Sequence record: OR906198.1
Direction: 5' to 3' (one strand)
DNA length: 64,000 nt
Origin: Escherichia phage BP32
Shown here: positions 20,319-21,003 of the stretch, piece by piece
How positions within the stretch are numbered: position 1 is the stretch's first letter
How the letters are laid out: each line of letters starts with the position of its first letter
Program-made: the position numbers and the translations under genes
Notes under the pieces: model-generated
What the model was told of the DNA's origin: nothing
What the model saw: the letters and a program-made list of their open reading frames with translations, nothing else
Database searches by the model: none

Positions 20319-20548
20319 TGTCTGAACAAACTATTGAACAAAAACTGTCTGCTGAAATCATAACTCTGAAGTCTCGTATCCTTGATACTCAGGACCAAGC
20401 GGCTCGTCTGATGGAAGAATCCAAAATTCTGCAAGGAACTTTGGCTGAAATTGCTCGTGCAGTAGGTATCACTGGCGATACTATCAAAGTCGAAGAAATC
20501 GTTGAAGCTGTCAAGAATCTTACTGCTGAATCTGCTGATGAAGAATAA
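20318..20548 (+). CDS. 57A: gp57A tail fiber assembly chaperone
   Basis: 76-aa acidic coiled-coil ORF between 1 and 57B. Confidence 0.85.
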
Positions 20549-21003
20549 TGGAATTTAAAGACTTTTCAACGGGTCTTTATGTAGCAGCTAAGTTTTCAGA
20601 ATTAACACTTGATGCGCTGGAAGAACTTCAGCGCTCTTTACGTGTTCCTAATCCAGTTCCTAGAGAAAAAATTCATTCGACCATATGTTATTCAAGAGTA
20701 AATGTTCCGTATGTTCCATCAAGTGGAAGTTTTGAAGTAGCTTCTTCTGGACATTTAGAAGTATGGAAAACACAAGATGGATCGACTCTTGTACTTGTGC
20801 TAGATTCTGAATATCTGCGCTGTCGACACATGTATGCGCGGGCACTAGGTGCTACACATGATTTTGATGATTACACACCGCATATAACATTGTCTTATAA
20901 TGTTGGACCCTTATCATTTAGCGGTGATGTACAAATTCCAGTCGTATTAGATCGTGAATACAAAGAGCCTCTTAAACTCGATTGGGCAGATGATTTAAAA
21001 TAA
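20548..21003 (+). CDS. 57B: gp57B, 2H phosphoesterase (Acb1-type anti-CBASS nuclease)
   Basis: 151 aa; two H-x-T motifs (IHSTI and PHITL) typical of 2H phosphoesterases; position after 57A. Confidence 0.85.

Follow-up and report, generated by a model that had tools for sequence, protein, structure and literature searches.

Phage T4 gene 57B encodes a 3'3'-cGAMP-degrading activity named Acb1 (NP_049750.1), and structures of the Acb1 of Erwinia phage FBB1 have been solved in the apo form (PDB 7T26) and with 3'3'-cGAMP (7T27) (Hobbs et al. 2022, PMC9117128). In T4 Acb1, residues H44, T46, H113 and T115 form the catalytic HxT/HxT tetrad, and the H44A/H113A mutant serves as a catalytically dead control (PMC9117128). 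Four aromatic residues, Y12, W74, F107 and W147, provide stacking interactions, E141 contacts the adenine N6, and residues 145-152 form a lid that closes over the ligand with W147 stacked on a base (PMC9117128). Ligand binding is largely independent of base identity, and cleavage proceeds in two metal-independent steps (PMC9117128). T4 lacking acb1 grows normally in the absence of CBASS and shows a >300-fold defect when CBASS is active (PMC9117128). In a published transposon screen, 57B/acb1 was likewise dispensable on a K-12 host and depleted on a CBASS host, which makes it a conditionally essential gene. Two other viral nucleases of immune signals are unrelated to Acb1 in fold and chemistry, namely the anti-Pycsar protein Apyc1, a Zn-dependent enzyme of the MBL fold that acts on cCMP and cUMP, and the poxvirus poxin, which acts on 2'3'-cGAMP.

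The 57B gene of phage BP32 and its product

We analysed a stretch of 64,000 nucleotides from Escherichia phage BP32 (OR906198.1), hereafter the window, which is reverse-complemented with respect to the standard T4 map and belongs to a Tequatrovirus other than T4 itself, its best 7-kb matches being 95-97% identical. An initial annotation of this DNA, made from the letters and translations, had pointed to a 57B gene carrying the two H-x-T motifs of a 2H phosphoesterase and had named T4 57B as Acb1. The open reading frame at 20548..21003 (plus strand) is real, running from ATG to a TAA stop and encoding 151 residues. It occupies the same position after 57A as its T4 orthologue, and its product is identical at 151/151 residues to T4 gp57B (NP_049750.1, from NC_000866; BLASTP) and, again at 151/151, to T6 gp57B. 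The protein matches the Pfam family PF23474 (Anti-CBASS protein Acb1) at 202.7 bits, where the cut-off is 27 (E=2.6e-60), and the match extends end to end, residues 8-149 aligning with positions 1-144 of the 144-position profile. Among PDB sequences the top match is chain 7T26_A, named Acb1 (the same sequence is found in 7T27; E=4.1e-62), with 68% identity and 85% positives over 142 residues and a single one-residue gap; through this homology to a solved structure, the BP32 protein belongs to the 2H phosphoesterase fold. At least 80% of the gene is present in 559 phage records, and matches of 95% identity or more are seen in 502 records.

The residues on which Acb1 function depends are retained throughout. 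The translation contains two H-x-[ST] motifs and no others, KIHSTIC and TPHITLS, which fall in different halves of the sequence and are each followed by a hydrophobic residue, as in the 2H superfamily (IHSTI at 42-46 and PHITL at 111-115). The first, H43-S44-T45 (20674..20682, plus strand; H44/T46 in T4 numbering), aligns with HTT in 7T26, and the second, H112-I113-T114 (20881..20889, plus strand; H113/T115 in T4), aligns with HIT. The two motifs noticed in the initial annotation correspond to the published tetrad, here H43, T45, H112 and T114, its naming of T4 57B as Acb1 agrees with PMC9117128, and in the alignment with T4 Acb1 that it had called for, the histidines of both motifs are conserved. 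The stacking aromatics Y11, W73, F106 and W146 and the adenine-reading E140 are also present, and the C-terminal lid, LDWADDLK at residues 144-151 (20977..21000, plus strand; T4 145-152), is identical to that of T4 and includes W146 (T4 W147). The BP32 protein thus shares with T4 Acb1 the catalytic tetrad, the base-stacking residues and the lid, along with all 151 residues and the same place between 57A and an ip gene. FBB1 Acb1 shares the HxT/HxT tetrad, the residues equivalent to Y11, E140 and W146 and the 2H phosphoesterase fold, but W73 and F106 correspond to F and Y, respectively, in FBB1, both aromatic-for-aromatic exchanges. A more distant protein of 165 residues, also named Acb1 (PDB 9Q2G/9Q2Y), gives an alignment that spans both H-x-T regions, yet the similarity is marginal (E=0.0044 and 0.028), which places it in another Acb1 subgroup. 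Taken together, the comparisons make it nearly certain that this reading frame is acb1 (57B) of a T-even (Tequatrovirus) phage, with a product that equals T4 Acb1 from T4 residue 2 onward and is predicted to cleave CBASS signals. As such it is an already known gene, characterised by experiment and structure in T4/T6 and carried by hundreds of T-even phages that have been sequenced. On the opposite strand within acb1, two antisense reading frames (20660..20845 and 20688..20831, minus) are mechanical, lying opposite a coding frame that is identical in T4 and T6.

Could the two motifs be a coincidence, and the gene have an unrelated function or none? By themselves they are weak evidence and a poor discriminator, as at least two H-x-[ST] motifs appear in 16% of composition-matched shuffles of its sequence, and 10 of the 72 reading frames of at least 100 residues in the window also have them, although the stricter pattern of H-x-T followed by a hydrophobic residue, required twice, is met with in 0.2% of shuffles and in one of these 72 frames. 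Because motif statistics alone do not discriminate, the identity call rests on homology, and it is homology that lifts the observation beyond chance: the full-length profile and structure-sequence matches have E values near 1e-60, and the protein is the same as a characterised one. The chance reading is refuted by the Pfam Acb1 family, PDB 7T26 and the identity with T4 gp57B, and its remaining probability is negligible. On a second reading, the product would be of the LigT (2'-5' RNA ligase) type and serve in RNA ligation or repair, working on tRNA or mRNA ends and not on immune signals. In its favour, PHROG 755, which the protein matches, carries the label "RNA ligase", the RefSeq records of T4, T6 and pSs-1 use the same name for the 57B product, the gene lies near a tRNA cluster and there is a weak match to Pfam 2_5_RNA_ligase2 (PF13563; E=0.11). 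This match is partial, however, and at 13 bits stays below the cut-off of 27, as compared with 202.7 bits for the Acb1 profile. LigT enzymes do resemble Acb1 in their paired H-x-T/S motifs and in a metal-independent mechanism via a cyclic phosphate, but their substrates are RNA ends, whereas Acb1 takes cyclic oligonucleotide immune signals; the identical T4 protein degrades cyclic oligonucleotides and is needed specifically against CBASS (PMC9117128; transposon screen). The label "RNA ligase" is a legacy name at the level of the 2H/LigT superfamily, and we regard an enzyme of RNA ends as very improbable.

It is somewhat less improbable, though still unlikely, that the protein is Acb1 and yet has as its main target another cyclic-oligoadenylate pathway, such as cA3-based type III CRISPR, or acts mainly as a liability that the Panoptes guard systems sense. 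Type III CRISPR is, however, rare in E. coli and Shigella. The role as a liability draws on recent published work, in which Panoptes systems hold their effectors off with decoy cyclic nucleotides, T4 Acb1 degrades the decoys 2'3'-c-di-AMP and cA3, its expression suffices to trigger Panoptes, loss-of-function mutations in acb1 or acb2 occur naturally in some T4-like phages, and escapers of type II Panoptes mutate acb1. Against this stand the direct genetics, in which the requirement for acb1 is CBASS-specific, and the state of the gene in BP32, which is intact and differs from T4 by synonymous changes that fit a retained function. We accordingly keep to Acb1 directed against CBASS as the preferred reading.

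Translation start, gene order and expression

The annotated T4 57B protein has 152 residues, begins MMEF and thus carries one N-terminal methionine more than the BP32 protein. Behind this difference is one G>A substitution where 57A and 57B meet (20540-20552). In T4 the junction reads GAAGAATGATGG, with TGA as the 57A stop and the 57B start at the first ATG, whereas in the window and in T6 it reads GAAGAATAATGG, so that the 57A stop becomes TAA and the annotated first ATG of 57B becomes ATA. Translation must therefore begin at T4's Met2, and the published residue numbering is offset by -1 in BP32. Comparison of these junctions implies that Acb1 can start at the second methionine of T4 and perhaps normally does so; the crystallised Acb1 construct was without its N-terminus altogether (PMC9117128). 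The remaining nucleotide differences from T4 within acb1 are five, all synonymous, a pattern that, for these small numbers, is consistent with purifying selection and retained function.

The gene order around acb1 is gp2, gp3, gp1 (dNMP kinase), 57A, 57B, ip, trna.4, trna.3, trna.2 and a tRNA cluster with segB, the same as in T4 and T6. Gene 57A, which encodes the tail-fibre chaperone, lies at 20318..20548 (plus strand; Pfam GP57 1.2e-50, PHROG 1002), and its TAA stop overlaps the ATG of acb1 by one base (TAATG); the junction is identical in T6, and gene 1 and 57A are joined likewise. These TAATG overlaps suggest that gene 1, 57A and acb1 may be read as one transcription unit with coupled translation. 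The 57A product itself has 76 residues here and 80 in T4, owing to a 12-nt in-frame deletion that costs the protein four residues close to its acidic C-terminus, where the T4 AGATGAAGCAAA is absent.

Expression of acb1 probably falls in the middle/late period. Gene 1 contains, 593 nt upstream of where acb1 starts, the octamer TATAAATA (19955..19962, plus strand), which we take to be the T4 late-promoter consensus and which is conserved, together with its flanks, in T4 and T6. It is a candidate source of a middle/late 57A-57B transcript. As a late promoter it would fit the published timing, in which 57B is expressed in the middle/late period and Acb1 activity is detected from about 15 min into T4 infection. 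A scan of 19400..21700 for sigma-70-type promoters returned 11 sites, chance level for an expectation of 8.3 +/- 3.2, and none of these stands out; in the same region, the pattern TTTACA-17-TACTAT with an upstream TG occurs at two sites, in front of ip5 and of trna.4 and not of acb1, and no intrinsic terminator was found after acb1. An Rfam scan of 19000..26000 at the gathering threshold reported tRNAs only, with nothing overlapping acb1.

A hairpin with a 14-bp stem (21025-21056) begins 22 nt past the acb1 stop, and the 91-nt segment around it folds with -18.6 kcal/mol (z = -3.55). It is not a canonical terminator, because no T-run follows the stem. The hairpin overlaps the spacer and the -10 element of the promoter-like TTTACA-17-TACTAT sequence that precedes ip5. 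Relative to T4, a C>T exchange preserves the pairing as G-U.

Neighbouring genes and other differences from T4

The ip gene adjoining acb1 (21076..21333, plus strand) is of the T6 type, its product being identical at 85/85 residues to that of the T6 CDS described as "Ip5, replaces ipI". The product belongs to PHROG 3499, internal head protein, matched no Pfam family and resembles T4 IPI within its N-terminal 22 residues only, which presumably serve as the capsid-targeting leader. T4 IPI* inhibits the GmrSD restriction enzyme. In T6, ip5 is followed by an Ip6 gene, which is missing here. A homologue of vs.4/acb2, encoding a cyclic-nucleotide sponge, lies at 32167..32433 (plus strand) and represents a second anti-CBASS gene of the window; its product is 97.7% identical to T4 Vs.4 over 88 residues (tblastn) and matches the Pfam family Acb2_Tad1_hairpin (7e-20). 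Two substitutions distinguish it from T4 (CEFAKNY to CELTKNY), and it keeps Y8, a residue whose Y8A mutant is binding-deficient.

The initial annotation had gone further and proposed that the neighbourhood of acb1 is an anti-defence locus. The genes upstream of acb1 encode virion proteins, the dNMP kinase and the tail-fibre chaperone, the adjoining ip gene is the T6-type ip5, and acb2 lies 11 kb away. An anti-defence neighbourhood is thus plausible and only partly supported. A further reading, which we consider unlikely, sees acb1 as a conserved anchor bordering the hyperplastic T-even ip locus, with 57B and the swappable ip cargo forming one exchangeable counter-defence module. If it held, Ip5, which here stands where T4 has the anti-GmrSD protein IPI, would be injected and inhibit some host defence.

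Further differences from T4 are seen downstream. Between trna.2 and tRNA-Leu, at the place of tRNA-Gln in T4 and T6, is an HNH homing-endonuclease reading frame (22377-23009; PHROG 14736, 6e-124); ARAGORN found no tRNA-Gln in 20000..27000. The tRNA cluster (23016-25030) also differs from that of T4 and runs Leu, Gly, Pro, Ser, Thr, Met, Tyr, then segB (23658..24320, 97% identical to T4) and then Arg. A 94-nt "tRNA-Lys" called by ARAGORN at 24937..25030 was not reported by the Rfam tRNA model at its gathering threshold and may not be a real tRNA. The second ip locus (29107-30560) has an arrangement other than that of T4: denV (29661..30077) comes directly after lysozyme e (29107..29601), and 3' of denV lies a reading frame of 157 residues with the internal-protein leader MKTYQEFITEA, 33% identical to ipII over 79 residues only. 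No homologue of T4 ipIII was found.

Acb1 in the defence biology of BP32

The gene, its identity, motifs, residues and synteny were established here; substrates, chemistry and the role in vivo come from published experiments on the identical T4 protein. On this footing, the BP32 protein would be a small enzyme of the 2H phosphoesterase fold that captures 3'-5'-linked cyclic di- and trinucleotides with at least one adenosine. Its expected substrates are 3'3'-cGAMP, cUA, cAAA and cAAG, and it would not be expected to act on cGG, cA4 or 3'2'-cGAMP. The bases of the ligand would be stacked on the Y/W/F/W side chains, the adenine N6 would be read by the glutamate, and the C-terminal lid would close over the ligand. 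The HxT/HxT tetrad would then carry out a metal-independent acid-base cleavage 3' of adenosine via a 2',3'-cyclic phosphate intermediate. With the second messenger destroyed, the CBASS effectors would stay inactive and the cell would not commit suicide before the phage has finished.

Being identical to the characterised T4/T6 enzyme, the protein adds no new biology of its own, and the analysis supplies the correct label for a gene that still goes by "hypothetical protein" or "RNA ligase" in many database records. For BP32, the sequence predicts resistance to CBASS wherever the signals are adenosine-containing 3'-5' cyclic di- or trinucleotides. As acb1 and acb2 are both intact, the phage is predicted to evade CBASS but to be sensitive to Panoptes.
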